From: Cyanophora paradoxa CCMP329
Lineage: Eukaryota; Plantae; Glaucophyta
DNA: 32,466 nucleotides
NCBI GenBank assembly: GCA_004431415.1
Contig: QPMI01000570.1
Location: 1 to 32,466, forward strand
Direction: 5' to 3'
The notes beneath the pieces are model-generated. The model was given only the letters and a program-made list of their open reading frames with translations, was not told the DNA's origin and ran no database searches. Of this stretch, positions 2,791 to 28,675 are shown one piece after another. The stretch's first letter is position 1, and every line of letters starts with the position of its first letter. Both the position numbers and the translations under genes were made by a program.

Positions 2791-3164
2791 GATGCGAGGT
2801 CACCTGCCTATGTCATCGGCGCACCTGCGAACTTGCGTCGAGCCGATCGAAAGGATGGTGGAGACTTGAAAGGGGTACAGGCTCATTGCTAAACGACCGT
2901 GGGCCACGGTCGTTCGGCAGACATGGGTACCGAATAATCAACGCGGCAGGCGGGCTAGCCTAGTAGTACGATTAAATGACAAAGAGTTAAACTGAGCGTT
3001 CAAGCACAGCATACCGCAATCACGGTCATGCACGAATGCGCGCGTTCAAGCATGGTATTCGCAAACTCCCGGAGCCAAACAAGAGCAGGCTGCGCGCGTT
3101 CATGATCAAGCATGGTAGTCGCAAGTTCCCGCGCCGGAGCTCCGACGTCGACGTGCCTGACACT

Positions 3165-3430
3165 AAGGGCGCTGGTCAGAGAGATGGAGACCTAAGGGAG
3201 GGGTGGGGTGCTTGAGGGTGGCGGCGACTGAGGGTGGCGGGGAGCTCGAGGGCGGCGAGGTGGAACAATGAGAATACGAGACGGGGTGAAAAAAAGGGAC
3301 TTTCGCAGCACAGCGAACAGTAGTAGGGGGGCATATAGAGAACGGACGGATAGACTACTGAGGGGGGGGGAGGGGGGGCGATCTTAAAATTACGGGCGGC
3401 TGGTCAGAGAAATGGAGACCTAAGGCAGAT
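3165..3430. repeat. Left part of ~215-230-bp tandem repeat array, interrupted by the LTR element
   Basis: Unit start GGTCAGAGA.ATGGAGACCTAAGG at about 3174 and 3402. The second unit resumes at 8378 (GGGGTGGTGCCCTAAAGGGTGGCGGCGACTGAGGG). Confidence 0.8.
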
Positions 3431-3867
3431 TGTTGAGCTAGAAATCCCCCATTCCGGTGCCCTAGGGGTGGCACGGGATTCTAGACAACAGGTTTATAGA
3501 GTGACTCTGACCTGCAGTGAGTGCAAGACCGGCCCCAGCGTGATGCAGGTTCAGCAGTATGACAGTACTCGTAGATTTGATCCGACAGAGTTTCACTACT
3601 CTAGTCTCTCTACTAGGCCGATCTCCGGGAATGACAAAATCCCCTAAACACGCACGCGCCGGGCTCCTAAAGCCCTCACGCTGTCCGTCCGAAGCTCTCA
3701 TGATCAGATCATATGATCCGATCAGACGGCTCAGACATATGAAAAGCGAGCCACTGGATTCGAACCCGAGTCTCTAAATACGCCGAAGCGAACTGCCGGA
3801 ATTGAACCCGGGTCTCTACGAACGGCAAATTCTAAGGCTGCAGCCGCCTAAGATTTCGCCCGCGACA
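3431..3867 (-). repeat. 3' LTR (437 bp)
   Basis: TGTTGAGCTAG...CCCGCGACA; direct repeat of 7941-8377. Confidence 0.95.
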
Positions 3868-4368
3868 TTCGTCGCAGCAGAGAAAAGCCGTCCTCGGCGC
3901 CTGCTACCCGTTCGTCGCAGCAAAATGCGAGGCCTAGCGTATGTAAACGTAAATCAGGTCCTGAAACCTCAGTACCACGAAGAGGTCAGGCCAGAAAATA
4001 TGGATACGAAATCCGACACTGAAGGCTGCAAAAGCAAAGCCCTCTGAGAACCTCGGAAATGCTGCGTGCGAAATTCAGAAGACGTATATAATGAAAAGTG
4101 GCCGAGGCGTTCTAACGCCCTGACGGCCCTAGCAGCACGAAGGCTGCACTAACTCTAGCAGCACGAAGGCTGCACTACCTATAGCCAAATCAGAGAAAAT
4201 CAGAAACCAGCAGAATATAACTATAGCTAAAGCTGCACATGTAGAGCTCAGAAAATATTTTCGAAGCTCACTGAGTCATGTACAAGCTAAACGCAACGAT
4301 ATGAAATCGCGATCACGATCAATATTCTAAAATAAGAATATCGAGATATCGATCGGAAATCGAACAGC

Positions 4369-4848
4369 TCAAGCTGCGTACTGCTGCTTGGCTGCGAGCT
4401 CGAGCTCGAATCGCTGCAGATGTTGCCTCACTCGCCGCGCGCTGCGGCTGATATGTACACGATTTTGTACAAATGCTTCGAGCTCCAGCTGCGGCTGCCA
4501 TGAAGAACGCCGACAGCTGCATACATACGCGTTGCAAATACGAGAAACGCAAGTATATATGATGAGAGGTCGCTGCAAGGTGCGGCCATGCTTGAACCAG
4601 CATCGCCAGCACGACTCTCTCGACGAGGGCAGTCTTGATTTGGGAATGACAGCGCCCTCGTGGACTTGCCGTGGACGTTGGCCTTGCAGACGCCGCTGCT
4701 CCTTCAACGTCGGCGAAGTCTGGCCCCTCCGGCCTGCGTCTGAATCTGTAGATGGCGAGAAAACGAGGAAGCCCTGTACATCCAAACGCGGGCGCCGCCG
4801 CGATGAGTACTTCCAAAATTTCCGCTCGTGATCTCTGAACCGCCTCAC
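4369..4848 (-). CDS. Possible second ORF of the LTR element, Cys-rich, unknown function
   Basis: 159-aa ORF on the same strand as gag, with CWRCWFKH...CVSRICNAYVCSC. No recognised domain and the start is uncertain. Confidence 0.25.
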   Translation of the reverse strand: MRRFRDHERKFWKYSSRRRPRLDVQGFLVFSPSTDSDAGRRGQTSPTLKEQRRLQGQRPRQVHEGAVIPKSRLPSSRESCWRCWFKHGRTLQRPLIIYTCVSRICNAYVCSCRRSSWQPQLELEAFVQNRVHISRSARRVRQHLQRFELELAAKQQYAA

Positions 4849-5863
4849 AAGATCCTCCGCCGTTCGACCCGAGAATTAAATTGCGGCCGGACGCACAGCT
4901 AAGGTGACGGTTGCTGTGTGCCCGCCGGCGGTAGGTGCGATTGCACGTCGAGTCCAAAGACCCAGAAGGTCCGCCGGGGATGCTCTATCCTCCGCCGGGT
5001 CAGAGGCACGAGGGAGACGGTGTCCAGTCTCCATAGCCAACAGATGGTTAAGGGCGTCCCCCGCTCCACCTGAGGCGAGACGGTGTCCAGTCTCAACCAA
5101 GTCCCCTCCTTGATTCCGAGAACGACAAAGGCCGGTTCCATCCGACTATGGGAGGTGCGCTTGCCTTGTCGTCCTGTTTCTTGTCAGTCAAGCCCGCTCC
5201 TCCGAGACGGACTGCATCTCGACGACGCCGCGTCGAGACACGCTTGACTTGAGTGTAGTAACCCGCGGCGACGATAACGCTGAGCTCGCGTCCGTCTGAT
5301 GCAGGGCCGATTCCGGTCTCGTCGGTTGGGTGTCAACCGGTCCAATGCTGTCCTGAGCGCCCTCCTGTCACGAGCAGGTCCGCGCCTCGAGCGAGACTTC
5401 GGGCATCCCACCCTCCACGGTTGTCCTCCCGCTCACGACTGTCCACAGCGCCCTCCTGGGTTCTTCCCATCCTGGCCAGGGCCTGGGCAGGTCCGCGCCT
5501 CGGTCGTGAACGCCGGTTCACCGGATCGGAGCGACGCCTTCTTCAAAATTTACGAATTCACGAATTCGAAGTCCGACCAGACCAATTGCAAGCTCCTGGT
5601 CATGATCATGATCGAGTCAAGGTCAATCCAGACCTTCAATGTCAGAAGAAAGGCCGTCGCTGTCGCAGGTGCGCGCAGTCCAGCACCGCGAAGCTGCCAC
5701 CGCTCCACCCACAACTTGAGAAGTGCAGCTGAAAATTACAAGTATACGCCACCACGTCGCAGGGACCACACCCCTCTTCGCGACGATATAAATCCTCATT
5801 CCTCCTCCGCTGGTCTTTTAATTCGCTTCACAGGCGGAGACCGAACCGCCATGGCGTATACTT

Positions 5864-7033
5864 TCACTTCGCGCCCGCCAGACTGCCGGAGCTCCGATAT
5901 TTCTCGAGCTCCTGCTGACAGGCTGAATATTGCATTTGCAGCTGGTTCAACTCCCGTTGAAGTCGCTTGCTGCAGACGGCAGTGTTGTGCGAGCCGCTCT
6001 TGCATTCATCGCACCAACGAGGTTGTCCACCGCCCTGACTTGAATTTAACTTCAGCTTCTTGCTGTCGGGCTCGTCGACGTCGTCCTCCTCGAGGCGATG
6101 ACGATCAGGGAAGGCGGAAAGTTGAGCAACAGGAGCTCTTGCCGCTGCAGTAGAAAATGGATTGCCAGTGCTTGCTTGCTGCAATCGAATCTCGAGCGCG
6201 TTGCGCGACCGAACTCGACCGAAGAATTCGCGACTCCACTCCGCCAGATTATTTCTGGAGCCCTCCGGAATTTTACTCGTGAGCTTGATCATTGACGGTG
6301 AAGTGATCGAATCCGACGACATGATTTCCGCGATCAACATCTCGTCGGAGAACGAATCTTGAAGCTGCAGTAGACGACGAAGAATATCAACATTATTTAT
6401 AAAGGCTTGCGCATCCAGCTCAGATGGATTTTCCAGCGCAGAGAAGCGACGTCCCGCCGTCTTGATAGTGTTCTTCAGAAGCTCGAATTTGTTGCCAGGC
6501 ACCAAGCCGAGCAGGTGCTCACGAATTTGTGCCCACGACGTCATGTCCAAGTCGCCGTTGCCCGACTTCGTAGTCATGACACCCAGCACAGCCGTCGAGA
6601 AGGATCCATGCACCGGGTCACTTGTCGAGCGCTGCAGCGAAGATAGTGCAAGCTCTGCCAACGTCTTGTCGGGTTCTGTGTATGTCGGAGGCCGGATACA
6701 AATTGTTAAACGTTCCAGCGACTCGACCCACGACAGTACACCCGTATTAGTCAAAGGAGGAATTTTCTCTTTGAATTCTCGCAGCTCGTGGTGACGTGCT
6801 TGCATGTCCAGGTTGCCAGTTAACGCGTCCAGTGCGTTCTTCAACGTGTTCTCGACTGCAGCAGCGGCTACCGCCGCCGGAGCCGCAACAGGCGCCGGAG
6901 CTGGTACCGGTGGTGCAACTGGAGCCGGAGGCGGAGCTGGCGCAGGTGCAGGAGCAGGCACTTGCGCTCCATGGCCAGCCGCCCCGTGGCCGCCGCGTTG
7001 GCCGCCGCCCCTGCCCCGTGTACTCGGAGCCAT
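5864..7033 (-). CDS. gag: Gag-like protein with CCHC zinc knuckle
   Basis: 389-aa uninterrupted ORF between the LTRs: Pro/Ala-rich N-terminus, capsid-like VLSWVESLE...TSWAQIREHLL region, and C-x2-C-x4-H-x4-C (CDECKSGSHNTAVC). Confidence 0.85.
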   Translation of the reverse strand: MAPSTRGRGGGQRGGHGAAGHGAQVPAPAPAPAPPPAPVAPPVPAPAPVAAPAAVAAAAVENTLKNALDALTGNLDMQARHHELREFKEKIPPLTNTGVLSWVESLERLTICIRPPTYTEPDKTLAELALSSLQRSTSDPVHGSFSTAVLGVMTTKSGNGDLDMTSWAQIREHLLGLVPGNKFELLKNTIKTAGRRFSALENPSELDAQAFINNVDILRRLLQLQDSFSDEMLIAEIMSSDSITSPSMIKLTSKIPEGSRNNLAEWSREFFGRVRSRNALEIRLQQASTGNPFSTAAARAPVAQLSAFPDRHRLEEDDVDEPDSKKLKLNSSQGGGQPRWCDECKSGSHNTAVCSKRLQRELNQLQMQYSACQQELEKYRSSGSLAGAK

Positions 7034-7925
7034 GGAGAACTTGAGCTAGACACGTCCGCCCGCCGCTCGATACCGCGCGTCGTAGTACTAGTGTAGGCCC
7101 GCGCGCCCCTCGACTCCGAATATTTTAATTTATTCCGACGTCGACTCGTGTGCCCGTTCAGTCGCAGACTAGAGTGCGAGCCTCCGAGGCTTGAGAGTTG
7201 CGAGTTCACTCGCACAAGAAGTGCGCTCAAGCCTCGCAACACGCCCAGCGCGCCGCGACTCCCGATCGCGCGCACGCCGATGCGCCGCCCGCGGCCGGCG
7301 CGCACGCGCTCGCAGGCTCGAGCTCCCGGCCGCAGGTCCGCCGGCGCGCAGCCGGGATGCCGGCGCGCGCCCTGGTTCCGGATCCGGCGCTCCGGCCCGC
7401 GGCGCTCCGGATCCGCGGATCCGGATCCGATGATCTCGCGCGAGGCCCTAGGTGCAGCGCTGCGCCCGGGGCCGCGCCGACGAGCCGCCGATCTACAGCG
7501 CGGTCTGCAGTGCAGACGCTGCGACGAGCGAGCGGCGATCAGCCCTGCGACGCGCGCGAGGCGCCTAGATCTAGAGCCCCGGAGCTAGCCCGGCTAGCCG
7601 CGACGTCGACGTCGTCGTTAGTGGCGCCCGGCGGCCGGCATGCGCGCGCACGCGCCGCGCGCGCTAGCGACCGTCGGACGCCGGGTCCGGAGCCCAGGAC
7701 GGATACGCATCTTTAAGAGCCTCGCGATGGCGCTGGCGGCCGGGCAGCGTCCGCTCATGATCACCCGCGATAGGTTGCGCCGAGCGGGAAGGGCCGGGGT
7801 TGAACGAATGCGCGAAACGGTTCTGGTCAGCGCACAGCGACTTCTGAAGGCACAGCGACTATGCGCATGAAATGAACGCGAGGCGAAGCTCGCTCGGCTA
7901 GCTCGCAGAGCCAGCGTTCGCGTTT

Positions 7926-7937
7926 GAGCAGCCCCCA
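7926..7937 (-). promoter_or_regulatory. Primer-binding site, tRNA-Pro-like
   Basis: Minus strand TGGGGGCTGCTC begins 3 nt after the 5' LTR. It is complementary to a CCA-ended tRNA and resembles the tRNA-Pro PBS TGGGGGCTCGTC. Confidence 0.65.
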
Positions 7938-7940
7938 AGA

Positions 7941-8377
7941 TGTTGAGCTAGAAATCCCCCATTCCGGTGCCCTAGGGGTGGCACGGGATTCTAGACAACA
8001 GGTTTATAGAGTGACTCTGACCTGCAGTGAGTGCAAGACCGGCCCCAGCGTGATGCAGGTTCAGCAGTATGACAGTACTCGTAGATTTGATCCGACAGAG
8101 TTTCACTACTCTAGTCTCTCTACTAGGCCGATCTCCGGGAATGACAAAATCCCCTAAACACGCACGCGCCGGGCTCCTAAAGCCCTCACGCTGTCCGTCC
8201 GAAGCTCTCATGATCAGATCATATGATCCGATCAGACGGCTCAGACATATGAAAAGCGAGCCACTGGATTCGAACCCGAGTCTCTAAATACGCCGAAGCG
8301 AACTGCCGGAATTGAACCCGGGTCTCTACGAACGGCAAATTCTAAGGCTGCAGCCGCCTAAGATTTCGCCCGCGACA
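7941..8377 (-). repeat. 5' LTR (437 bp)
   Basis: Direct repeat of 3431-3867. Confidence 0.95.
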
Positions 8378-9500
8378 AGATGCAGGGGTGGTGCCCTAAA
8401 GGGTGGCGGCGACTGAGGGCGGCGGAGAGCACGAGGCTGGCGGGGCGGAGCAACGAGGACCTGAGACGGGGTGACCAGGGGGACTTTCATACCACAGAGG
8501 GTGATGATATGACACAGGGCGGCGGGTCAGAGCGATGGAGACCTTTTTTTTGCAAGAGCCCAACCGGGCAATGTTCGTATTAAGGACAACAACAGCCGCC
8601 CCGTCGCTTGCATCGACTGGGGGGGGCGCCTAGGCTAGCTCTGAGGCTCTGCGGAATAGAGGGAAGACGTCCTGCTATCTTATCCTAGCTGTGAGCTATC
8701 GATCTGCGGCTTGAGGAGGGCCTGATGCGCTGGTGTCCTTGGTCCTGTGGAAAAGGAGGGAAGGGGGAAGGCGAGGCGCACGGGGTGCGGGAGGTCGGCA
8801 GGGGGCGAGGCGTAGGGAGGGGGAGAAGGGCAGGGAGTGGGGTACACGGAGCGCTGGAGGGTGGCGGGAGTGAGGCGTTCGAATCGGGAAGCTGAGGGGC
8901 GCGCGGGCGGGAAGGGTGACGGGCCGGGAGCGGGGCAAGGCGCTGGAGCCGGAGGGCGGGGGCGGGATGCTGGAGCAGGAGGGTGGGGGCAGGGCGCTGG
9001 ACCGGAGGGCGGGGGTGGGGCGTTGGAGACGGAGGGCGGGGGCGGGGCGCTGGAGCTGGAGGACAGGGGCTGGGCGCTGGAGGCGGGGGGCGGGGGCGGG
9101 GCGCTGGAGCTGGAGGAGCGATGGAGACCTATATAGCTAAGGGAGGGGTGGAGCGCTTGAGGGTGGCGTGCGGCGACTGAGGGTGGTGGGGAGCTCGAGG
9201 GCGGCAGGGCGGAGACAGGGTGACAGAGGGGACTTTCACAACACAACGAACAATAGCAGGGGAGCATATAGAGTACGGTTGGCTAGACTACCGAGGGGGT
9301 GGCGATCTTAAAATTACGGGTGGTGGGTCAGAGCGATGGAGACCTAAGGGAGGGGTGGTGCCCAAAAGGGTGGCGGCGACTGAGGGCAGCGGAGAGCACG
9401 ACAGCGGCGGGACGGAGCAAGCTAAGGGGAGCCTGAGACGGGGTGGGAAGGGGGACTCTCACAGCACAACGAACAGTAGCAGGGGAGCAAATAGAGTATG
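8378..9500. repeat. Right part of the ~215-230-bp repeat array plus G-rich low-complexity tract (about 8740-9120)
   Basis: GAGCGATGGAGACC unit starts at about 8530, 9116 and 9331. Shares GGCGATCTTAAAATTACGGG with 3377-3397. Internal GGCGCTGGAG repeats. Confidence 0.8.
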
Positions 9501-9509
9501 ATACGTAGA

Positions 9510-10225
9510 TTACAAGACACAGAGACACTGCTGCAGATGAGGGAGTGCAATGCGAACTAGTTCATGTACAGGTAGTCTAGCATCGAGCCGTACAATCGGA
9601 ATTCGACGCTGGTCTTCCAGCTCATTAAGCCACTCAGCATACAATTTTGACAAGCCTGGAATAGTCCGGATGGTCTCTTGTGAATCTCCCCGACTGCATG
9701 CACGACGCTGACAGAGCTCACTTGACGCATCCAGATATACTATCATAATCGGATCGGGAAACGCAAGACAAGCATACGTTTCTTGAAGCAAGTCGCGCTC
9801 GTGAAGGGTGAGATTGCCACGAGCGTGCCAGTAGGATGAGAAGATAGTATTTGAAGAATAATGACATCGCTCGACCAGGCCGATGATCGGAGGACTGCCA
9901 GTGCTAACGCTAGCGCTGTTGGCAATCGATAATTGGCGAAGGTGATCAGCATGAGACAGTAACGCTCGAAGCTGCATGCCAAGTACAGCGCCTGGTCTAG
10001 GGCCACCAGGCGCAAAAATACCGTCCAACCACGGCTGCCAAATATGCAGAGGCTCCGGGAATACACGAAACTGGGAGTGGCAGTTTGCTTCGACGGCTGC
10101 AGAAACTAGCTCTGCAATGAGCGTGCTTTTACCAGCTCCCGGCGGCGCTTCGAACGATACATATGACGCGCTGTTGCAGGCACCGGTCGGCGTACTGTGA
10201 GCGGGAAATCTACTAACGACTGCAT
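9510..10225 (-). CDS. Deoxynucleoside kinase (dNK/dCK/dGK family), apparently intronless
   Basis: One open frame from about 10230 to 9510 reads YVSFEAPPGAGKSTLI (P-loop), FPEPLHIWQPWL, LVERCHYSSNTIF (ERS motif), PDPIMIVYLDASSELCQRRACSRGDSQE (lid). The nearest ATG (10225) is one frame off. Confidence 0.88.
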
Positions 10226-10277
10226 GGACTTAGGGTGAGAAGCAGACGAAAAAAGTGAACAGGGGTACAGGCAAAAC

Positions 10278-10989
10278 ATGGACACGTGCACATAGAAGAT
10301 AGTCGCAAGCACAGCACTAGTACGCAAGCAGCGAACGCGCGTTGCAGTGCGGAACTGAATCTGAGCAGTACCGAAATAACGTCGCTGGCAAATTTCGCGG
10401 AGTGCAGCCGGTGTCACGCAGCGCACTCTGACAGGTCGGCACGTCCTATGTCTGCCGGTCGCACGCTTAGTCAGTTGCAGGTCATCGACTTCAAAGTCCG
10501 GTACCTGAATTCATAAAGGAGCAAGGGGTGCCACCCAACAAACCGGATGTGCGCTTCCCTTACCAGCTACTTCGCGCCACTGCCTCAGCGGTTGGCTGCA
10601 GCTGCTCATTATAACACGATGATTCACGAGGGAACGAGGTCCAGCTGTTCATGACCATGTCGCCAACTACTACGTATTGGGAGCAGCTACTCGGCCTGCA
10701 TGCAAACGGAATCGCGGAGAAATTGCCAGATACGGATACGGCTATAACCACATTCGACGGGAGTGGTGTCGCGACCTCTTTCCAGCAAGATCAGTACCAA
10801 CTGATCACTGCAGCTGTACCAGTCGCAGCACACGAGGACAGTGAGGATGATATGCCAGCACTGGAAATCGGCATGCCACACTTTTACATAGGGATCAACG
10901 CCATTTCCGCCGCGACCGATCCTCCAGCAGTATACTCTCATGAGCATTCGTTGATCTGGCTAGTAGGGGCGGTGCGGCGTGAAGAATAA
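10278..10989 (+). CDS. Hypothetical protein divergent from dNK
   Basis: ATG at 10278; ORF pieces 10286-10516 and 10651-10989; AATAAA overlaps the stop. No recognised domain. Confidence 0.3.
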
Positions 10990-11047
10990 AAATTCGATCG
11001 ATTAAATGGACATATCGCTAAACGAGGGCATCATAGTCATATCTATT

Positions 11048-11680
11048 CTACGGTATCAATGCAGAGTAATGGTGGTTCTGTATAGAAAGTAGAGAACCGT
11101 CGCAGTGAAAGATCCCGTGGTAGAGTAGACACAAGGGACGGTGATAACGGATGAGAGGAGGGACGTGAAAAGTTCCATCAATCCCTGTGTGTATATACGG
11201 GAAACGTCGGGAGGCACTCCTATCTTCAAAAAAAATCATGATAGGTCTACACAAGTAGGCCGAACAGAAGGCGACTTCCAGATTTGTAGCTGCACGGGCG
11301 TTATAATGACATGAGTAGTTTCTGGTTAGTAGGCAGCACACACCGTCTGTACCGGGCTCTCGCATGCGGTTGCAGTATGCGGTAATGATATTCGCACCTT
11401 GATTGAGACCTTGCGCGCCGTTTGGAGCGACTGGGGCGTCGGGAATTGCAGCGGAGTATAATAGGGGTAGAAAGGATGGAGAGGACTAGTTGACATCATC
11501 AGGTCAACAACACCTGCCCGTAGTGTATCCGCAAAGAAACATTTCTCTGATTTCCGCTGTAAGACAGGAAGGTCCCTTCAGCAGATAACCCGTCGATGAT
11601 GGATAGGAACATGCAGCGCCTGCACCAGAATTGCTGCGAATTTCGACGTATTGGAATGGAGCTCTAGATATAAATGAAAG
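11048..11680 (-). CDS. OTU-like cysteine protease/deubiquitinase domain, downstream of and possibly fused to RepHel
   Basis: SGAG(R)CMFLSIIDGL (Cys at about 11613-11615, needs a 1-nt frame correction), LRAGVVDLM, YCNRMREPGTDG/ATNLEVAFCSAYLCRPIMIF, LCLLYH, NHHYSAL. This is the OTU motif order. Confidence 0.72.
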
Positions 11681-12420
11681 GTCTAGATAATTACTGACCT
11701 GACAGAACAAGGTAAGGGGACACTACGTTTGGAGGCAGCGTCCCTTGCGTTACCATGGCAGATATGCGCTCTGCCATAATATGAACCACAGAAGATTGGA
11801 TATGAGTTGAGGAAGGTGCAGCAGGGACAACAACAGTGTTGTAGAGTGGAAGACAGCATGAACGGGAGGTGCGGACCACTAGAAGCTGCATGTGCAAAAA
11901 CCGAGTCCAGACGGCGAGGAAGGAGATCATGCGACAAGAAGGGGACGGTGCAGGGTGTAGATGGCGAAAGTAATGGACCCAGGGGACGGACAGGGGCACT
12001 AGAGGAAGAAACCGGATGAGAAGTGTGGATAACTGACGTAATCGCAGTTCCAGCTACGTTGGCCCGTTTCGGACAGGATGAGGTGACCGAATCGTTTAAT
12101 TTGCGTTTCGGTGTCACAGGGGTTGGTTGTGAACTTGAAGCAGGGGCGTTTGTAGAACCCTGTTTCTTCGGGTACCAACTTGTTTTGATGATCCGGAATT
12201 TGCAGCTTTGAGGCGATAGTATTCCATGACTGACGGCGGCTTGGCAACTGGCATAATTGAAGTTCCCCACAATGCGCGGCGATCTGACGTTGGTAGGCCG
12301 ATTGAAGACGACAGAGTCCGAAGGCGTTCCTGTTCCCGAATATCGCAAGGGTTCGGAGCAAAGTAAAGCCATCGATCGCAAGTTGTGTTCGAATCTATGA
12401 TGGCATCGACATCCGATACA

Positions 12421-15400
12421 TCAGACTCGCCGCTGCTCGAACATATGGTCGCCAATGGTACAGGTACCGCTTGGATTGGCGTCCAGGTTTCGTGACTTGG
12501 GGTCGCGTAGGACATGGGTGAATATGATATCCGCTGAAGATCGAACGCGACTACAGGCTACATACGCCATGTTATACGAGAATGCACGTGCAAGGTCAAC
12601 CACGATCTTGGGCAAGGTCAGGCCTTGGCATTTATGGATAGTAACAGCCCATGCTAGTCGAAATGGGAACTGTGTACGCGATGGCGTAGGGCTTGTGGTC
12701 TTGGCCTCACTCGTCAGGGCGGGCTGGTTTCATGTTCCGGCTGGTCTGAATTTGGCGTTTCCTTTGCATGTACAACAGGCTCATTCGAAAGATCGCGTTC
12801 GGAAGGCTCGATTCGTACAGCCTGGTAGTCGACACCTGCAAGCGAAACTTGGACGCGTCCTCGTTTGCGACCGACCTTGTCATCGTCGAATGCGATGTAC
12901 AGTGCGACGGGTGCATTCTTGTCCAAGATTCGGACCGTTGAGGACGACAGTGGAACTGGACCATCGAACTCCCAACCAACCAAGGTTCCGAGGGCTCCAT
13001 TAACCAGCCGTCGTGTGTATCTTCATTGATGATCATCATTACACGTGAGCCGAGACAAAAAGTGAACTTGGCTGCCAACAGATCACTCTGTTTATTCTGC
13101 AAACTCCAGACTGAGACAAGAAAAAAGATATATAGATCGAACATGGAACAAGCCACGCACGTCAACAGGATCAGCTGGCTTACATGTTTTCGCTTCTTGT
13201 CGTATTCACCCTCATCGAAAGCCTCCAACGTGATGATCGGTGCTAGGTACGATGTGATGTTGCGAACAGGCGAGTCTGATTGTAGGAAGCAACTTCCCTG
13301 TTACAAGGGAACACACGCAATGCATTCTGCCAAGCAGGAGAAGACAGCTCAAGCTCCAACTGCGCATACCCTCGGCGATTTTCCTGAGGGTCAACGGACC
13401 TAAAGGCCCACGGTATTTCAGCACGCTTCAAACTCCTACTTGAATGACGCAGACAATATGTAGTCACACCTGGACAGCACGAGACGTTTATCATTATCGT
13501 GGAATTCACCGACACGCAGTCGCAGACAGGTGTCACGCCACATCGTATCACCAGCTTGCCGGACCACTTCGTCGAGAAAAATGGGATGAAATAATGAAAG
13601 CCATAGATGGATATCGTCGATACGGTCGGCATCTTGCTTGAACGTACGCCACATAAGAGGCGACAAAGGACTGTAAATCCGCTTCTCCCGGACAGGAGGT
13701 AGCTGAAAGAAATCCCCGAAACAGATTACGGATTTTCCAGCAAAGGAGCATCGATCTGAAAGATCTCCTGCAGACGCTGATTGACACGCGGGAAATTCTT
13801 GCCACCTATGAAGCTGATCTCGTCGATGATGATAAGTTCGACGTCCCGGAACTTTGCATTCAATTGGCAGGCTCGTTGTCCAGACAGAGGGTAAAACGTG
13901 TCCTTTGCGCCGTCTTTAGGAGGGCACCGAATGCCAGAAGAGTAGAGACGGTGCTACCTCCAATGTTAAACGATGCAACACCAGTCCAGGACATGAGCAG
14001 AACCCCTCCGTTGCCACACGGTTGGGCCATGTTGGCATGATCCCGGCTCCATTGCATCATATATTTTACAATCGTCTTGATTAGGAAAGACTTCCTGTAC
14101 CGCCTGGTCCGACACACGCCACATGTAAGGTAGTTTGGGAGAGATGGCAGGGAGTTCCACTTGTCGGCAAGCTGGCATCCCGGCATTCGCAGCTAGCTTT
14201 GCATTGTAACTATGCAACCGGAACCAATCAGGTCATTATAATAAAAATAACGAAAGCCAGCACACTCGGATTGAGAGGTGTAGTGTTTTCGAGCCGACTA
14301 GTCATTTGACGGACGGCAACCATCAGCTCCCGTTGTCGGGGCTTCAATTTCGTTTCCATGTCTGGCAGGCTCATTGAATCAAGATCATGCAAATCGACAC
14401 TTGAATTCGACGTAGCCGGGACGGGTGGCTGAATCGAACTAGGTGGCTCAGAGTTGGCCGCCTCTGGTTCCGAAGGGATAGCAGCCGGTGCAATGTTTGG
14501 TCCACCACCTTGCGCTCCCGCAGGAGGAACGGAGTCATGAGGGAGCATTTCGGCATCGACCCCCTGGACTCCTTCGGGTGCACGGGGTCGCACATGGGAC
14601 GTGGATGATGCTGTGCCAGTGGTCGAGCGATTATCATGGTGCAAATCTCTCCCAGCAGCCAATCGCGCATCCCTGTCGAATTTTTGGAGAGATCGTTCGA
14701 GACGTGCAGCCATATGACAGTGAGTAAACTGTATGTTGTACTCTATAGTTGCACGGTGACGGATGACGGCGGCGGATATAACTTCTGGAGTAACGTCATC
14801 CTCAGACTCGACCCCCAGCAGATCGCGCAGTTCGTTCCGGAAAGGACATGCATAAAAAGAAGACTGTACAAGCTGTCCGGATCGCCATCCTTCGGAACCC
14901 GAACCCGAATTGCGCGCGGTCGACGACGCTGTTGCAGCACGTGCCGATGGAAAGGTTTGCCCATCGAGGTCCGTGGACACACGCTGGTAACGGAAATTTA
15001 TGATTACCAGTTGTGTGAAATGCAAGGATCCGATTAAAAACAAATATACCCGGAGGCAGCAATTTTGGGTCGAAGTGGTGCTGTTGTCTGCGGATGTTGT
15101 TTCCGGATAGCCTCATTCGACCATGCCGGATTCGGCTCCCAATCATTCAAATTAGTGCCATTGTCCATTCCATCGCAATCCACATCCTCGCTTGTGAGAT
15201 TCGAATCAGGGCCGGCGCCCTTTGGGGCATCACCAAGGAAATGTATGTTGAACCAATTCATGTACTGCATGAATGTCAACGATTCGAATATAGGTGGCGC
15301 ATCTAATACATCCATCAGTTCGAACGGTCGTAAAAAAACCACCCGAAGCATGCACGTACCAGCAGGGTCTTTGGTGCGAGCCATATAATAATCGATCTGA

Positions 15401-18400
15401 TCGTCGGCCCATGCATCTTGATCTTCAGGATTCTTCTGCATCCTGAATTCAAGATCTTTTTTACGACGCAGATGTTTGGTGCGCTTCGACGGAAGATAAG
15501 CCCCACTGAGCATGATGTCCTTGATGAATAAAATAAAGGGAGACCTGCCAACAGAAAATGCATATTCAGGTAAATCAAAGTGGAATGATACAATTCAATT
15601 AATTCGAAGCCAAGGAAGTATAGGGTACAGACCCAGGCAATATAATCCTGCTTCCTGTTTCGACATTGTCCGACACCCGAGCATAGCATTACGCATCTAT
15701 ATGAGGGGTCCCGACAGTCAGCGTCATGTGTAGCAAGGAATCCAGGCACGCGATGCAGCATGCCTTCAGAAGGATCTGATTAGTCGACGCCTCATCCGGC
15801 AAGTCGCTCAATACGGCCTCCACAGCTTTCATCTCCTCCGTCTCATCCTTAGTCATATAGCCGAGAATATACGCGGCTATCTTGTAAGGGTTCGTCACTA
15901 CTTGAATATCCATATTGGCCTGCCAGAGCTGGATGATGACGTCGTGAAAGTTATTCGTGTAACGATCGTCCTGCGTTGTTCGCCGGAAGATCACCTCCTT
16001 GTCACCACGGCACATAAATCGCTCTTCATGCGAACTCCGCAGATGAGTCTTAGAAGCAAACACCTGGGGAAATCCGAAGCGACATTTACAGCGCTCCTTG
16101 TATTCCGCCATGAACTTCGCAATGCGGGCAGAACGGGCGACGTGCTCAGAAGGTGCTGCTTTTTCCATAGCGGCCAACTGGTCGTCGAGGACGCTATTGC
16201 GGGCCGAATCCGGAAGGGGTCATGTAGTTCCGCACTGTCATCTACCGTAGGCAATTTCCGATGACGTCGAAACTTAAAGGAAGCAGCAGGATCGATCCTG
16301 CAAGTATGAGAGTGTTTATGTCGATTGAAACGGGCAACGTAATTCTGTAAACGAGGTGTTGCCCATGGTTGAGCGAAAGGCCCTTCCGTTCGAGGTTGCT
16401 GAAGTTGAATCGTCGGTTCGCGTACACATGAACGGGGCAGAGTAAAAAATGAGGAAATCGAATGACTCACCTCGGTTTTGACGACTGTATCAAGCCACTC
16501 ACAAACTTGCTCGGCATTGAACGTGGGATCCGAAGGGTCCAAGTTCGGTGGCGGTGTTGTCACACCATCTCGGATGCGCTCACCCAACCAGATTACCAAA
16601 TGAGCATGCAGCGATCCACGACTCTGTACCTCATACCTTCGATTACATTATTGGCGAGAATTAAGTACGGTATGAACCTAACCGCGAACCGGACAAAGAA
16701 ATCAACCACCGGCCAACCAAATAAGACCTCCCCGCCTCCGATTGGAAGAGATCAAGCATGGCACGGACACGCTCGTCGAAATGTTCAGCCACGATTCCAG
16801 GGTTATCGTTCAGCAATTTAACAACCTCGTCACGATTCGCAGTGAACGCCGTTACATCTGCACTGGACCGGAAACGAATAGGATCGATTGCACGCAATAA
16901 GTCCGGCCAATGAAGGTCGTCGCTGGAGAGAGTCATGTAGATATGAGGAAATCCAATCGTAGTGAACATGCTGTGTAATTTATTTCTCGCGTTGATCCAA
17001 TACGCGGCTGTACCGCGCACCTAATTGAACACCACTTTGGTCAGCACAGCAGAGGCAGTAATATATACAAGGGCAAAGACGTGAACGTGCGTTACGTGTC
17101 ATTGTACGGTAGCACCGCGTACGAATGGCCAAAGCGTCGAGGGAATGGTCTTCCACAGTACTGTTTATTAAATTTAATGCGTCGGCAACAGTCAAGGGGG
17201 CATTGGAAGCGACATTGTGGGTGTCACGATTATCGGTTGACATAGCATTGACTATATGATCCCGCACAAAATTGAATCCACGCCATGCATCATCATCCAA
17301 TATAATTGACACGGAATTCAGAAGAGCAGCAGGATCTCGCTGGAAGGGAGCAGATGATGCTGCAAGGCATCGGTGTGAAAAAAATTCACGGGCCGTGAGT
17401 TCGATTGGCCTGGCGGATCATGCAGGCCGTGCGTGCCTGAAGTAACTAACTTAATCTCGGGCGGCACGGTTTCAAATAGCAAATAGCTTACCTGTAGGAT
17501 AAACTGACAAGAAGGAGCAGACGTCTGTTTCGGGCGCATGCGCACGGATAATACGGCCGGCGTTTACAGGGAGAGTGCTAAGCGAAGTTCCTTTCAGATT
17601 CACGGCGACAGAAGGGCAGATCGGACGGTTCAGAGGCGAGGAGTCAGAGACTCCGTCATCCGAATCATCACTATCCGAATCATCGGCCTCGCGTGGGTTA
17701 ACGACATTGTCAGTAGTTCCAGCATTCCATTTCTCAATTTCGGCCAGTAGCTCGGGATCGGTTGGATCACGCAATAGAATATTCTGATAATACAGGTGCT
17801 TGGTGGTATTCCGCAGGCATTCGAGAACTTCGAAGCAGCGATCCAGCCTAACGCGGTTGTACCAAGTCTCTCCACCTTTCGGCTTTCGTTGATTCACCAA
17901 GCAAACCTTCCCTCTTGGTGGAAGTGGGAAAATTGCTTTGATATTGTTGATGGGGTTGCAGGTACAAAAATCACTCGTCCTTGAGAACCTAGTTGCCCTC
18001 CACCCATCCTGCGACCATTCTGCCCTTTTGGTCCTCGAACATGAATTAACTGAGATAGCATACGAAATTACATGACGGTAAATGAGAGTGACAAATAGAT
18101 ATCACCTGATAGTTATTAACCCGCTGACACATCAGCAATTCCGGGTACGTTAAATCAGACAAAAGACGTCGCGTACTTTCATCGACCTCCACACAGTGCA
18201 GACGATTCTGGACAAAATCTGCTTTAGCCGGGTGTGTCGATAAGTATCCAATAACACATACCAAGCGCGAGAAGGGGCAGAAAGGTCGTTCCGGAGTGCA
18301 TTGAAAAGCATGGCACCGGGTACAAAATTCGACACTTGCCTGATCAACGGGTATTCCATGCAGACGCAATACTGAACACGGTTGACAGCACACATCTGTA

Positions 18401-18954
18401 AGTACACACTGACAACTCGATTCATGATGTCGTAGCGGTGAAGCATTCCCAGAAGACACACATTGGCAGCGAATGACATGCAATTTATCTGACCGCCTTG
18501 ACTCTGTGCAGCAGCTACACAGTCGCCGGATGCAGTATAGCTTGAGAAAAAATAACCTGGCAGCATCCTTTAATGCTTGGTTTGAAATCTCGTTCCAGAA
18601 CTGAATCGGTTCATAGCTGATGCAAGCATATGCATGAGAAGTAGACGTGCGTACACGGAAACGCAAACTTACTCGGACAATAAGGTGGCGAAATCCGTGT
18701 GAAGTTCCAAGAGACGTTCAGTCTTGTTGCGCCTGCTACGACTTGCACTCTTCGCGTGTTCCGAGGGTCTGAGAGGATTCGACGCATGGCGAGCTGCAGG
18801 AAAAATAAAACAGAGATAAACGGACATGAAAAGAAAATTCAAATGTCACCCCGCACGTACCCGAATCATAATCACGCAAGAATTGCCTGTCAGAGTCAGG
18901 GAGCGCATTTCTCAGGCGACCACGGTACGAATTCTCTGAAAAAGCGCCCGTCAT
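12421..18954 (-). CDS. Helitron Rep/Helicase transposase (HUH-Y2 endonuclease plus PIF1-family SF1B helicase), intron-rich
   Basis: N-terminal LSDLTYPELLMCQRV and VRLDRCFEVLECL (HLE2/DUF6570-like). Rep: RGTAAYW...GFPHIYMTLSSDDLHWPDL, HUH motif YEVQSRGSLHAHLVIW (about 16585-16636), RHKHSHTC, CRFGFP, ANMDIQ...AAYILGYMTKDE. Helicase: GPGGTG/KS, WTGVASFNIGGSTV, IIIDEISF, FGDFFQLPPV, LDEVVRQAGD, LAWAVTIHKCQGLTL, AYVACSRV. Start ATG 18954 is tentative. Confidence 0.95.
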
Positions 18955-19037
18955 GCCAGTTCACTAAGGGTTGCAAGTTCTAATAAACACTCACTTGTTT
19001 GTCTGCTAGGCTGGGTCGATCGGTGAGCTATAGACCG

Positions 19038-21200
19038 ATGGGCCTCCCAACAAGGACGATCAGCGAGTACGGTGCCACACAGACCACATGGAAATTTGTC
19101 GTCCAGTGTAATATCGTGGGCACCAGCCAAGTGGTATCGCCATTCATTCTCGGTCCGAAATGCAGCCCTGCATGAGGCGGCACCGACACAACGGTACGCA
19201 AACTATAAAAAAGATGCACGCAAATTAGCGAGAGGCAAACGGTCCGAAACAAAAATACCACTTGCATGTTGAGCTGGGGTTGCATGCACGAATCGATGGA
19301 GAAGAGGCGGAGTTGATAAAGAAGACTGCGACAGATGGCACGGTCTAGGTGCAATTTTAGGAAAACGTTGCACCTAACATGGCAGCGACGTTACACCGGA
19401 ATATAATACCCATATTATTCAGCACGCACAATTTCGAGAAAACGTGAGGGCGTGAATGATGAAGAACCCGGTAGAGGGTTATAGGCAAATTGCACATCGG
19501 GCGGTGCAGCCCCGCCATGAATATATTGACTCGTTCAACCTGCGTCGACAAATGTAAGAACATTCCACGTCTCCACGCAACAGCACATATTCGGCAGCAG
19601 CGCGCAGAGGGCCTCCGAGATCTTGACACGATACGCACGGGCCAAATTCGAGGACGCGCCCCCGGCGCGAGAAGCCCTTGCGTCTAAAGCCTGCAACGCG
19701 TACGCTCTCGGCGCCCTGCCTCGGCAGGAAGGGACGTACAGCGGCGCACGCGACGGGAGCACCAGGGCGACGTGCGGCCGTCAAGGACACACCGCCGGCC
19801 GAAAGTCCACGATGGTCCACGTGTACCAGGGTAGCTGAGCACGCTAGACGCCAACTGGGGATGCAGTTCCTAAAGAAGATGCTAGGCGGCAAGACTAACC
19901 GTACTAATTCAACGACCACCCACAGGGGTATCGCATAAAAAACACAGTAGTTGGAAGCAGCACCAGCTATATTAAGATGTCTAGCGGGAAGACGATCGCC
20001 ATATCCAAGGACCTTGTCGCAAACGCGACGCAATACGCACAGAGAGCACACGATAGCGTATTACGGGATGTTAGACAGGATGCCGTTGCCAATCTCGGAG
20101 ACTTCCCCTCGGAATGCAGGGCCGACCTCGTAGAGCTGGAATACACAGCATTGCAGTTAACCGGCAAGCGGCTGATCACGAATCGACAGTTCAATCGACT
20201 CGTATGGGCGGCGGAGGTGTACGCGCAGTTCGCCGAAGTTGACCGGTGTCTGCAAGCAGAAGCTATGGAGATTAAGCGTGACAACGAGCCTAGTCAGTTC
20301 TGCGGCGTATTAAGCGTCTCCCCTTTTCAGCCGGGACACGATGGCGAGTGCTAGCTTTGAAACGGAAGTGGAATTGGAAACTGAAGGCGACTGACGAGAA
20401 ACACGTGGAAGCAGCGGCAGCTCAAGATCGGGACATCGAAGATCTGGAAATATACGCAACAGTATCAGAGGCAATCGCTGCAGTGGAGACTAGGATCGCA
20501 GATATTGAACGCGGAGGGCAACGAGCAGCGGGGACTGTAATAAGGCTGGTGGGTTGGTAAGCATGAATTATCTGTACATGAACACAATAACGTATGCGTG
20601 GATTTGAACTGAAACATGCAATCGGATGCAGTGAGGAGTGTTTGGAGGTCCGGAGAAAGAAGAAGAGCGCGTGGGGAAAATGCAGCAAGCATGCAATTAC
20701 ACGGGACCAAACCTCCAAGATTGACAGTACAAATTGTAGGCAGTAACTACCAGTTGTTCAGCAGGAATTAATATACATCATTCTAAGATGATATCCAACT
20801 CTAACTGGTGAACTTGCAAGGCAGATTCCAGAGCCTGGCAGATGCAAGGCAGTGGCATGGCAGCAGACGAACATGAGAGATGCCACAGTGCAGGTTCCGC
20901 AAGCCAGAAGCAGGTATATATACGGAAGGAACGAAGGGCGGGGGCCAACTGGATGCATATGCGGGTTGGATAGAGGCAGGGAGAATTAGGGAAGCTGAAG
21001 GAAAATGCGATGTAAGATGTAAGAAACGCGTGTGTAAGAAACACTCATCGACAAAATTGGGCGAACCTGGAGCGATCAGTCGTCAAGTACTATTTCGTCG
21101 ACGACCTCGAAAGGGTGGTAGCCGGCTCGTGACCGAGACATCTCTTCGACGAGGACGGTAATACGAAGCGCGAGCCGGGCGGATCGATCGAGGATGGCAG
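19038..21200 (+). CDS. Unknown multi-exon gene divergent from RepHel
   Basis: ATG at 19038; protein-like ORF pieces 19977-20354 and 20348-20560. A GTAAG...CAG intron (about 20557-20631) joins to GCEECLEVRRKKKSAWGKCSKH (C-x2-C...C-x2-H). Gene limits are uncertain. Confidence 0.4.
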
Positions 21201-21208
21201 CGAGAGTC

Positions 21209-23529
21209 TCAGAGGCGCCATGGCTGCCGCGTGCACCGCCTTGACCGAATCCTCATCGGCCCACTGGATGATGTGAGAGGCACGGTTGCAGATGCTGGTG
21301 ACCGACCGGAGCCCTGCTGTATGTCGGCCACAAGGCCGCTGCGCTGAGACCGAGCAGCGAGAAATGCCTGGAAGTGGCCGGCCACCGCGCGCGTCACAGT
21401 GACAACTCCAGCGACCGATGGCGTGTCGTAGAAGACCTCGGCGAGACTGTTGGACGCACCGAACGCTGCAGCAGCTGCAGAAGCTGCATACAGTGGAATA
21501 CGGCGGGAGGACAAGAGGAGGCCACCGACAAGCCCGAGAGCGGCAAGCCGAGGGCAGTTGCGGGCGACTTGTGCTATAGAGCTGACCAGAATGCCGTGCA
21601 CTTCAGGCGCGGGGCCGCTATAGGAATCACGAGGCGCTCGAGGGTGTCCGATGAGAGGCGCATAGCAAAGTCCGATACGAGACGCGTATTGTACTTGTGA
21701 TCGAAGATGCGATGAGCAGAAAGGTCGAGGGATACAAGATATTTGAGATTGTGGATGAGGTCGGCGACGTGGATGAGTTTCTCGGGCAGCACGGGGCTGC
21801 GCAGAACCTCGAGGGACCACGGTAGGTAGTTAACATCTATGCACCCGCCGGGTACTGACGGGATCGAGTTCTCAAAGTGAGTAATGTGATTCTGCAGATG
21901 GTCGTCCATCCACTCAAAATCAAACAGACTGCGGAGATTGACACGCATGGTTGACGGGGCCGCCACTGCCGGCGACGGCACCACGTGCGTGCGCGAAGCC
22001 CATGACTCGTAATCACCAAAGATGTCGAAGCTGACCATCGGAGAGTCGCACTCAAATGTGATCTCGACGGGCGCTCGCAACAACGGAGGTATGAAGTACA
22101 GCCCCTCGTGTGCATGACCCACGGGAAGGGACCCTCGGACGATAACCGACCGAGCATCGAGCCGCGACTCGACGAAGTGACAGCTGTTGGTTGCGCACTG
22201 GTACGCAATGGCGCCCGTAGATATCTCGAGCCGGTCAAGGAAGAACGGACCAAGGGACCAGCCTCCGAATCTGCGACGAGTGCATGTGATTAAAATGCAG
22301 GATCACTTGTAAAAGTAGAACAGGAGTAAATTTCGCTGTTGCTTCAAAGATACCAGCGATGAGACGGCGAACCTATCAACATAGCAGGAGCGGGGGGCAG
22401 TGGTGCCAGGCAGCGGCAAAGGCTTGAAATGCAGAGCGTCCAGGCCTTCGAGCTCATTGGATGCCAGATCATCAAAGACGAGCACCTTGGCCGACGTGTT
22501 CTTGGCGACGACGTACCATTTGCCGTGCACGGGGCGCGCGTTCCCCGGGTGGGCGGCGCTAGTGGACAGGGCGAGTGACCACTGATCTGCCGGGATGGCT
22601 GCTGGCCCATCGAAATCGGAAGGCCGAAAAGATTCGTTGACGATAACGTCCAAGAACTTCGCGATGTACGGATGCCGACGGGGCGGGACGTCGAAGATGC
22701 GCGATACGACGCGGAGTAGGCTGCTCTTGCCAGAGAGGAGGTGGTGGACCCAGCGACCGAGGAAGGCAAGAATAGGCGCGGTGTGCTGTTCACTAGAAAG
22801 GGGCTCCGCAGGGTTGACGTAGCCGACGTCGCGGAGCGCCGCGTCGAGGTCGAGAACGACGCCGCGCTTCCCGTGATAAGGGACCACGGACGACGACGAC
22901 ATGAAAATACTGCGGGCCCGCCGATGCGTGTGTGCGAACGCCACAGCCGAACGGGGGTCTGATCCGAGGTGACGCATGATTTCGGCCATCACCAGGTCTG
23001 GGAGCCCGTCCAGAGGAGAGAACCTGGAACGGATAGTGGTCGTGTGATAATCAGTCCGTACGCGCTCAGCGGCCGGAGGTGGTCGGGTGCGGGGCGCTGG
23101 AGGCATAGGGTGGGGTAGAAGCAAAGAGTGCAGTCTGGAAGCGTGGGGCCTGGGCTTGAGGGTGACGGGGAGTTGAAGGGGGGCGGCCGGGACGAGGAGC
23201 TGGAGGGCAGCAAGGGGAAGGGGGTCTGGGTGCGGCAGAGCAGGTTGATGGAAGACTCGGCCCGGGGCGGGGCGAGCAAAGACGACGGGGGCGAACAGCG
23301 GAGCACAGGGAGGGTTTGAAAGGCCCATTTGGAGTTTCGGTGAGGGCTTTAAACTAATATTCGAAGTACAGTCCAACAGTGCGCACGTGCACGGCTCCGC
23401 GGCCGCCGGAGCGACATCCGGATCCGCCGGGAAGACTCTCGCTGGATCTTCAGAAGGAGGACACGCCGTGCCAGACGTAGAAGCAGATACAGGGGCATCA
23501 GCTGAAGAGAACTGCTGAGCGATGAGCAC
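21209..23529 (-). CDS. F-box-like protein, multi-exon or frameshifted
   Basis: 408-aa ORF containing LDGLPDLVMAEIMRHL...AFAHTHRRARSI (F-box-like), continued by ORFs 21574-22122 and 21209-21820 with weak LRR-like segments (LKYLVSLDLS, RNCPRLAALGL). Confidence 0.55.
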
Positions 23530-24831
23530 AGCCGAATTTCGGACAACCGTCTAGCTGCATGCGCCATGCTAGCTGGATGCACGTGCGCACCCAATCGGCA
23601 AATCCGGAGGTGATGCAGCTGCTCCTGCAGATGGGGCATCTGTGGCTCACCTAAACGCAGCTGCAGATCCATGGGGGACAGAATAAAGGGGCGGACCGGG
23701 CAAGCTGTTCGTAGTGCGATTCGCAGGTCGACCACGCTTTGAGGGAGGCCTGCGAGCGAGATTGTGCAGCGTGTCGAGACGGACTGAGCGGTAGGGCGCA
23801 TGGCGGGGCGCGCAGCGTGCAGCGCACCCTACGGGGACGCGAACATCGGCGATGGATTTGCTTCAACGTCCGTCGACTCCGTAGACTTCGGTTTGCAATG
23901 GCGGGCCTGCGGCAACGAGAGTAGACAAAGTACATGAGTGCGTGCGGAACAAGACGAACAGGCCCGATTCAGGCGCGCGGGCACCGAGTCTTCACCATGA
24001 CCGCGCGTCCGATGGCTACAGGTGAGAACGGCCGGGCGACGGCAGATTTTTGTAATATGCCGATCAGCCGCAGAGGAGGCCTGATTAGCACGGGGGGGTA
24101 TCATTAAGGCGGCAAAACTGGCAATAGAAACCGGCTGCGATCCGGCGGCGAAACAGCCGTAGGGAGAGCAGACCCACCTGTTAAATTGGACGGGTACGTG
24201 CGGCCAGGTAGACATGAGCCGCCGATGATCTGCAGATTCGTGCACAGTCGCTGACCTGGCTGTAAGCGCGACGGCGAAGCGCGAGCTCGGCGCCTGCAAT
24301 AAAACTACATGGAAGGATGCGGTGCTACATCTGGTGACCCCCAGGGTGCGGGCTGTCACACGCACGACCGGCGAAAGCGCGCGCCGCTGTCAGAGGAAAA
24401 TTAATTCGGTGCACAAACAGAGTACACGATTGACACGGAAGATCACAAGTTCCCTTCGGAAGTCCCAGTGATGCGGGAGAGCACTTCGCGCGCAGCGCCG
24501 ACTTCCGAACTTGGCACAACGGACAATACGGTGACTGTGTACGTTCATATATGGCTTCCGAATAACAAACATTCACTTATAATAATGCTCAGGATCGAAG
24601 AAGCACGAGAAAGCATCGATAATTCAAATCCATCGCCAAGCCACGTGACGACCTCGGACGACAATTCTGGTGGGTATATACCCTATAAATCAGAAGTCAT
24701 GTGGATATGGTGCACTAAACCAAATTGTCATGTCAGCCCCGCCCCGAATTCTGCAGCGGCGGCTACTTATATAATAAAATATATTTGACATGACAGAAAG
24801 CACCGCAGCCCCCTAATCAACAGTCCTATAG

Positions 24832-27750: not shown

Positions 27751-27898
27751 AACTGCCAACGTTAGGGGCTGGAGTCGCCTCAAGGCTCTCGATCGCACAT
27801 GTACACTATAGCTAGGCACTGCGAGGCTCGCAATCGCGATCGCGATTCAAAAGATTCAGAAGCGGTCATCTAGCTATAGATCTGTATCGTTACATCAC

Positions 27899-28642: not shown

Positions 28643-28675
<33 letters not shown>

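Follow-up and report, generated by a model that had tools for sequence, protein, structure and literature searches.

The window analyzed here, a stretch of 32,466 nucleotides (nt) from the glaucophyte Cyanophora paradoxa CCMP329 (GenBank assembly GCA_004431415.1, contig QPMI01000570.1, positions 1 to 32,466 of the forward strand), encodes on its minus strand both a Helitron-type RepHel, which combines a Rep and a PIF1-like helicase part, and a gene of the deoxynucleoside kinase (dNK) family (Table 1). As a first-pass annotation, made from the letters alone, had placed it, the dNK gene lies downstream of the RepHel gene; the two share a strand and are 2.2 kb apart. Its identity, its integrity and its relationship to the Helitron are the subject of what follows.

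Table 1. Features of the locus, in coordinates of the window.
Feature	Position	Strand	Remarks
dNK gene	9510..10225	minus	ATG 10225-10223 to TAA 9512-9510; 238 codons with the base missing from the assembly read in
P-loop A-P-P-G-A-G-K-S-T	10122..10148	minus	residues 28-36 of translation P0001
F72	10014..10016	minus	position with a nearly invariant Tyr in the dNK family
E120-R121-C122, counterpart of the E-R-S motif	9864..9872	minus	R121 invariant in alignment A2 and E120 nearly so; both invariant in alignment A5
Lid R176...R180-G-D182-S-Q-E185	9675..9704	minus	from alignments A1, A4 and A5
One-base assembly deletion	10164..10165		puts ATG 10225-10223 out of the dNK frame; short-read contigs have an extra G
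Spacer	10226..12423	minus	RepHel end to dNK ATG, 2.2 kb; no Pfam match
RepHel (Helitron-type Rep and PIF1-like helicase)	12424..17020	minus	split into frame pieces by assembly gaps
Satellite-like repeat block	8378..9500		starts 10 nt past the dNK stop; units of ~200 nt, core GGTCTCCATCGCTCTGACC; continues at 3140-3427
Insert	3427-8377		splits the satellite-like block; direct repeats of 441 nt (3427-3867, 7938-8377), 99.8% alike
Exo5-family PD-(D/E)XK nuclease (PF09810)	~707-1493	minus	three colinear Pfam pieces (E 2.5e-10, 0.025 and 2.4e-6)

When the window is translated as it stands, a stop-free minus-strand frame of 239 codons (10229-9513) carries every dNK landmark and matches Pfam PF01712, in agreement with the initial observation that all the motifs of the family stand in one open frame. 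In this version of the sequence the ATG at 10225-10223 and the P-loop stand in different frames, and no ATG precedes the P-loop in the dNK frame itself. This frame break is an assembly error. To elaborate, we compared positions 9400-11100 with contigs from X4 and X6, public DNA runs from two studies: each spans the interval in one contig, with no other letters and three one-base gaps, which correspond to insertions at full depth of a G behind 10164, a C behind 10503 and a G behind 10629. The G behind 10164 accounts for the entire depth in X4 (158.3 of 158.3), in X6 (220.4 of 220.4) and in X19 (3.54 of 3.54), the last belonging to a set of runs, X18-X24, that we term RNA-like, since RNA is only a guess for them. 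All three insertions recur in X19, the single one within its cover recurs in X18, and record 21 of X20 has one gap within 10007-10203. With the base added, a scripted read-through opens at the ATG at 10225 and closes with the TAA at 9510, a span of 717 nt that yields 238 amino acids (aa) and one terminal stop; none of the 5000 shuffles of this frame was free of stops. The corrected N-terminus agrees in both length and sequence with that of a C. paradoxa paralogue, P0004. Thus, with the extra base supported by X4, X6 and the RNA-like X19, the dNK gene is intact at 9510-10225, single-exon and uninterrupted. The boundaries first assigned to it coincide exactly with the ATG and the TAA, the former being in frame only upon the one-base correction, and the lack of introns originally noted holds across the read-through frame. 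Translation would begin at the ATG at 10225, a second in-frame option being available at 10279-10277. The open reading frame (ORF) is partly covered, colinearly and at a depth of 3-5, by RNA-like runs of two studies; transcription is hence possible, to the extent that their guessed label is right.

Errors of this kind recur throughout the neighboring RepHel gene. Its Rep part is recognized as Helitron_like_N, which scores 48.6 bits at 16664-17020 (cut-off 28.9). HUH-type and Tyr-motif pieces are found at 15692-16647, the helicase is represented by PIF1-like pieces at 12424-14232, and tblastn with the RepHel proteins P0071-P0074 aligns the Rep and PIF1-like parts. The alignment of P0073 reaches its C-terminus at 12678-12424, which puts the end of the RepHel ~2.2 kb before the dNK ATG. 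When set against the X4 contigs, the assembly shows 16 one-base gaps over 9092-13724 and 15 over 13909-20300, i.e., ~31 in total or ~3 per kb; 13 of these positions are individually listed, 10 of them between 13741 and 16729. In the unfilled sequence the PIF1-like region aligned to P0073 as three pieces in three frames; with these 10 gaps (behind 13741-16729) filled, it aligns to residues 1332-1540 of P0073 in a single frame (E 2.9e-25), and the RepHel gains a 266-codon frame with the Walker A motif G-P-G-G-T-G-K-S. Therefore, many of the apparent exon breaks in the RepHel are artefacts. No genuine intron was demonstrated, and short ones may remain, e.g., near 16650-16750. The "otherwise intron-rich locus" against which the first-pass annotation had set the intronless kinase is largely a product of the ~31 one-base gaps over 9092-20300. 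This comes with a more general warning, namely that the ~3 one-base deletions per kb of this assembly in repeat regions imitate introns, frameshifts and pseudogenes. The annotation had also spoken of a RepHel/OTU gene: the Rep and the helicase are there, whereas an OTU domain is absent both from the Pfam scan of 86 ORF pieces and from tblastn with the OTU-bearing P0073, in a sequence where uncorrected frame errors could hide one. The related RepHel proteins P0072 and P0073 combine DUF6570 with OTU or Herpes_teg_N at the N-terminus. At 18954-19202 there is a C2H2-like zinc finger piece, which may be part of the RepHel. A word-index search for RepHel relatives returned four metagenome proteins and no Cyanophora gene models.

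By profile, motifs and fold, the gene at 9510-10225 belongs to the deoxynucleoside kinase family. The Pfam PF01712 match scores 48 bits where the cut-off is 27 (E 1.7e-12), with profile positions 8-180 (of 203) covered by residues 31-217. The residues were gauged against two alignments: A2, with 26 dNK family members, which also served as profile and as AlphaFold2 input; and A5, whose eight rows are the window dNK, four animal dCK/dNK/TK2-like proteins, one ascovirus protein, P0003 and P0005. The segment A28-P-P-G-A-G33-K34-S35 conforms to the PROSITE P-loop pattern [AG]xxxxGK[ST]; K34 is invariant in A2 and A5, and G33 is invariant in A5 and present in at least 90% of A2. The residues invariant in A5 are E27, G33, K34, S35, E59, P60, W64, L68, Q86, E120, R121, F130, R176, R180 and D216, among which K34, E59, R121, R176 and R180 are invariant in A2 too, with E120 at 90% or more there; the further landmarks E59-P60...W64 and Q86 stand in the same frame as the P-loop. 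The third residue of the E-R-S counterpart is a Cys, as it also is in P0002 and P0005. In the lid, which in the family is Arg-rich (R...R-x-R-x-E-E), the invariant residues are R176 and R180; the second Glu is matched by E185, and D182 occurs where most relatives have a third Arg; the lid is three residues shorter than in six of the A5 sequences (P0005, the four animal kinases and the ascovirus protein), and both the R-G-D form and the shorter length are common to the window dNK and P0003. The position of F72, behind the E-P..W helix, is conserved in the family without defining it: it is a Tyr in at least 90% of the 26 A2 sequences and in all seven other rows of A5, with Phe again in the paralogue P0004. 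In sum, the protein shares with the dCK/dGK/TK2/Dm-dNK family the P-loop, the E-P...W, the Gln, the E-R-x and the lid Arg, but differs from it in F72, in D182 at the place of the third lid Arg and in its shorter lid; it also differs from the animal enzymes in A5 in being devoid of their long N-terminal extension.

Profile and structure comparisons point the same way. The A2 profile matches Drosophila dNK (E 2.7e-52), human dCK (~1e-50), dGK (1e-45) and bacterial dGK (3e-30); a PDB sequence search with the single dNK protein yielded no match. An AlphaFold2 model built from A2 has a mean predicted local distance difference test (pLDDT) of 92.4 and a predicted template modeling score (pTM) of 0.86, and Foldseek matches it best to human dCK, Giardia deoxyadenosine kinase (dAK) and Drosophila dNK (probability 1.00, template modeling (TM) scores of 0.62-0.72; 0.65-0.72 for human dCK), with thymidylate kinases close after. 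The sole PHROGs match is to a thymidylate-kinase family (E 1.1e-7) and the sole NCBIfam match to dTMP kinase, far under its cut-off. Since the P-loop Lys, the Glu and Arg flanking the 5'-OH site in the dCK and Dm-dNK structures, the base-binding Gln and two lid Arg are all kept, the window protein is predicted to move the gamma-phosphate of ATP onto the 5'-OH of deoxynucleosides, giving deoxynucleoside monophosphates (dNMPs). In the same structures the positions of F72 and D182 contact the sugar 3'-OH and the phosphates. These two departures, the latter within the shorter lid, may alter the specificity, the activity or the rate of the kinase and count against our interpretation, in which the enzyme would be active in spite of them.

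Within the dCK/dGK/TK2/Dm-dNK family the window dNK is very divergent: a search of 1.84 billion representatives found 68 proteins at E <= 0.001 and just three at <= 1e-10. The best full-length relative is P0003, a protein of 215 aa from public run assemblies with 42% identity. The two other strong matches are C. paradoxa gene models on one contig: tig00000492_g1432 (P0004) has the N-terminal kinase part (59% identity over residues 16-76) and continues into Peptidase_S74 (E 5.5e-18), and tig00000492_g1397 (P0002) has the middle part (residues 85-160, 57-63% identity). In contrast to the full-length window dNK, these are kinase pieces within chimeric models, which may be mis-predicted over similar assembly errors. 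Both conserved dNK segments are found on a paralogous contig of X4, with a depth of 315.7, twice the 158.3 of the window contig; dNK-like sequence is repeated in this genome. The Cyanophora matches, the GC-rich right flank and the 67.6% GC reported for the C. paradoxa genome (PMC6704402) fit that alga as the likely source of the DNA.

The first-pass annotation had proposed two routes by which such a gene might have arrived, namely acquisition from a virus or retroposition, the former on the premise that dNKs are typical of large DNA viruses. The premise holds: 80 of the 599 IMG/VR stretches matched encode dNK relatives, many of them on contigs of giant-virus metagenome-assembled genomes, and the BFVD fold matches include iridovirus, pithovirus and megavirus dNKs (TMq 0.62-0.69). 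The Nucleocytoviricota enzymes are of the same family and fold as the window dNK and are auxiliary genes beside a replication machinery; however, their identity to it is 20-28% (76 loci), as against 42% for P0003, and the window has no other viral hallmark gene detectable with Pfam. A metagenome search with A4, an alignment of two rows, gave a single weak locus among 83 stretches (L077, 36% over residues 22-68), a pattern scan of prokaryote genomes with A4 gave no dNK relative in 33 stretches, and a protein atlas gave no pointer to origin, its P-loop kinase clusters at 0.94-0.95 being a mixture of bacterial, viral and archaeal ones. In a careful tree of 47 rows, chosen from 112 with most long-branch rows omitted, the window dNK is sister to P0003 (99/95), and the pair falls among GC-rich metagenome proteins, outside the clade of the animal and main giant-virus enzymes (98/96). 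Moving the pair into that clade costs 11.7 log-likelihood units and is not rejected by the approximately unbiased (AU) test (p 0.179). A quick tree of all 112 rows was discarded, because under constraint the search reached a tree whose log-likelihood exceeded that of the free tree by 45.8 units. The phylogenetic check that the annotation had called for thus places the dNK outside the animal and giant-virus clade and leaves a position inside it unrejected. Given this combination, the gene appears to be neither clearly viral nor clearly vertical in descent, and acquisition from a virus gains no support from the identities or the tree topology. As for retroposition, no poly(A) tract follows the stop codon, the repeat unit beginning after 10 nt, and the idea is unsupported in as much as the contrast with an intron-rich locus is mostly artefactual.

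We next consider whether the dNK is cargo of the Helitron-like element, i.e., located physically inside its termini and moving with it, a proposition that we regard as evenly balanced. The dNK shares the strand of the RepHel, and in base composition (GC 0.52; GC at third codon positions, GC3, 0.46) it resembles the RepHel pieces (0.49-0.54) and not the host-like flank genes (0.73-0.77; GC3 0.73-0.86). An unbroken low-GC block from 9501 to ~19500 includes both genes. In X4 and in X6, a single contig (4649 and 4643 nt, respectively) runs from the helicase region (~13730) through the dNK to ~9095. Further, one diverged RepHel contig has an additional match at ~11575-11620; therefore, the homology within this RepHel family reaches beyond the RepHel stop. 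The repetition of dNK-like sequence in the genome speaks for cargo as well. The arrangement also has a precedent of sorts in Helitron-like elements with captured domains. According to the HELIANO survey of 404 eukaryote genomes (PMC11417382), 20 extra domains are stably included in such elements (RPA, OTU, an endonuclease and 17 others), and in HLE1 the RPA lies downstream of the RepHel and on its strand, as the extra gene does here. It differs from these in being a nucleotide-salvage kinase, encoded by a separate ORF 2.2 kb away rather than as a domain of the transposase. Taken jointly, the reading of an intact single-exon gene of the dNK family that is likely Helitron cargo and whose product is predicted to make dNMPs strikes us as having an even chance of being correct.

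A number of observations weigh against the dNK being cargo. No termini of the element were found: there is no inverted repeat of more than 10 nt between the 270 nt past the dNK stop and 19000-27400, nor a hairpin after the stop. The 2.2 kb that part the RepHel from the dNK are without a recognized domain. No second copy of the RepHel with a dNK was found, and the three diverged RepHel contigs of X4 (80-90% alike) are without a dNK piece of at least 80% likeness among the matches listed, where the depth bins 9503-9903 and 10305-11507 likewise contain the main contig alone; as an argument against cargo this is weak. Depth in X4 is of little help: the element stands at 158-159, the stretch 8662-8966 at 74.5, the dNK paralogue at 315.7 and the three diverged RepHel contigs at 36.8-43.5, and with no single-copy calibration these values, including the contrast of 158-159 with 37-43, do not translate into copy numbers. 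In addition, X18-X20 are RNA only by supposition, and their cover could belong to either strand. The absence of termini around the dNK, of dNK pieces on the diverged RepHel contigs and of any domain in the intervening 2.2 kb would all be natural if the kinase were a resident gene, or part of some other repeat, beside which a Helitron inserted and with which it does not move. The paralogous dNK pieces in GC-rich gene models elsewhere (P0002 and P0004) and an X4 RepHel contig that extends ~2.4 kb past 20300 into a long ORF at the same depth, as fits a single-copy region, speak for it as well. Such an independent neighbor, however, should not be expected to have a GC3 of 0.46 like the RepHel rather than the 0.73-0.86 of host-like genes, nor to share the strand of the RepHel within a low-GC block continuous from 9501 to ~19500; moreover, the persistence of ~3 one-base errors per kb is, in our estimation, what multi-mapping reads would produce. 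We accordingly judge it to be a serious though minority possibility.

The Helitron could also have taken up a cellular dNK that is of no use to it and is now drifting, its open frame reflecting youth rather than selection. The capture of genes by Helitrons is well documented (PMC11417382), the window dNK departs from near-invariant residues at both F72 and D182, and the other Cyanophora copies occur only as fragments in chimeric gene models. Yet, the frame of 238 codons is intact with most catalytic residues retained, and identities of ~60% to the paralogues imply that the copy is not young; the R-G-D lid, too, recurs in P0003 at 42% identity, which marks it as long established in the clade and not as recent decay. 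On this balance a neutral copy is distinctly unlikely. Least probable in our view, with only a slim chance, is that the RepHel, the dNK and the Exo5-like nuclease form one module, for replication and nucleotide metabolism, within a larger integrated element of viral character, either an endogenous virus or a giant mobile element, that reaches past the left end of the window. The nuclease is of the Exo5 family, on the same strand and of similar GC (~0.5), dNKs are typical of giant viruses, and the AU test does not reject a placement in the animal and giant-virus clade (p 0.179); but capsid, polymerase and packaging genes are all absent from the 86 ORF pieces (18 + 12 + 56) scanned with Pfam, the repeat block and an insert flanked by long terminal repeats separate the nuclease from the dNK, and the closest viral dNKs are 20-28% identical to it.

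If the dNK is indeed cargo, it would be a new type of Helitron cargo; at this single locus, what is seen is a divergent dNK gene that either was captured by a Helitron or lies next to one. The first-pass annotation had regarded dNKs as unusual in transposons, and the literature concurs as far as it goes: in the literature searched, we found no paper linking Helitrons with a deoxynucleoside kinase; the term "kinase" occurs nowhere in the text and one supplementary file of PMC11417382; searches for Cyanophora with Helitron and for Helitron with thymidine kinase brought up nothing relevant by title or opening of the abstract; and Helitrons go unmentioned in the searched portion of PMC12344493. 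Auxiliary genes of nucleotide metabolism are a hallmark of large DNA viruses and not of transposons. Under the cargo reading, the dNK would lie within the termini and move along with the Helitron-like element, and the salvage capacity that it adds would aid the rolling-circle DNA synthesis of the element. This last step is the weakest of the proposed mechanism, and we consider it unlikely that extra salvage capacity helps that synthesis. Somewhat more doubtful still is the fullest version, in which a glaucophyte Helitron-like element carries a salvage kinase of its own, perhaps together with the Exo5-like nuclease 8 kb on, and selection maintains these genes because they feed and process the DNA synthesis of the element. 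Such an auxiliary module of metabolism, familiar from viruses, has no counterpart among the extra domains listed for Helitron-like elements. Should a Helitron-like element indeed carry and use a dNK, this would show that rolling-circle transposons, too, can be limited by the supply of deoxynucleoside triphosphates, and the boundary between Helitrons and viruses would become slightly less sharp. On a more modest reading, the locus provides a very divergent dNK branch, with an R-G-D lid and a Phe for the conserved Tyr, and a concrete place at which the question of cargo can be posed.

The remaining features of the window lie to both sides of, and between, these two genes. At the satellite-like block past the dNK stop (8378-9500), the GC content rises from 0.50 to 0.66, and a 27-nt minisatellite is found within it at 8932-9116. 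The insert that splits the block has a minus-strand open frame of 393 aa (5864-7045), which has no Pfam match and by eye is gag-like with a zinc knuckle; a joint in X4 that leads from 9349 to 8378 might be the empty site of this insert. Beyond it, the Exo5-like nuclease, with a GC of ~0.5 and the strand of the RepHel and the dNK, may be either further cargo or a separate gene.

In the spacer between the RepHel and the dNK, an X18 contig skips 46 nt on the plus strand (10431->10478) with GT..AG ends (CAG/GT...CAG/GT), the stretch being unskipped in X19, X4 and X6, and a plus-strand frame of 157 codons follows this joint at ~10550-11020; there may be an antisense spliced transcript on the plus strand here. 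Upstream of the RepHel, at 21574-23550 on the minus strand, two open frames of 415 and 242 codons stand in the same frame with a single stop (22303-22305) between them; their GC is 0.57-0.61, they have no Pfam match, and the X4 RepHel contig ends inside them at ~22750. A palindrome of 129 nt (27232-27360), 79% self-complementary, lies where the repeat-rich part gives way to the right end of the window (27.5-32.4 kb), which is GC-rich (0.64-0.77) and host-like and in which inspection by eye of 27800-32466 picks out WD40-like pieces (minus, ~28200-30300) and an F-box-like frame at 31374-32240 (plus).

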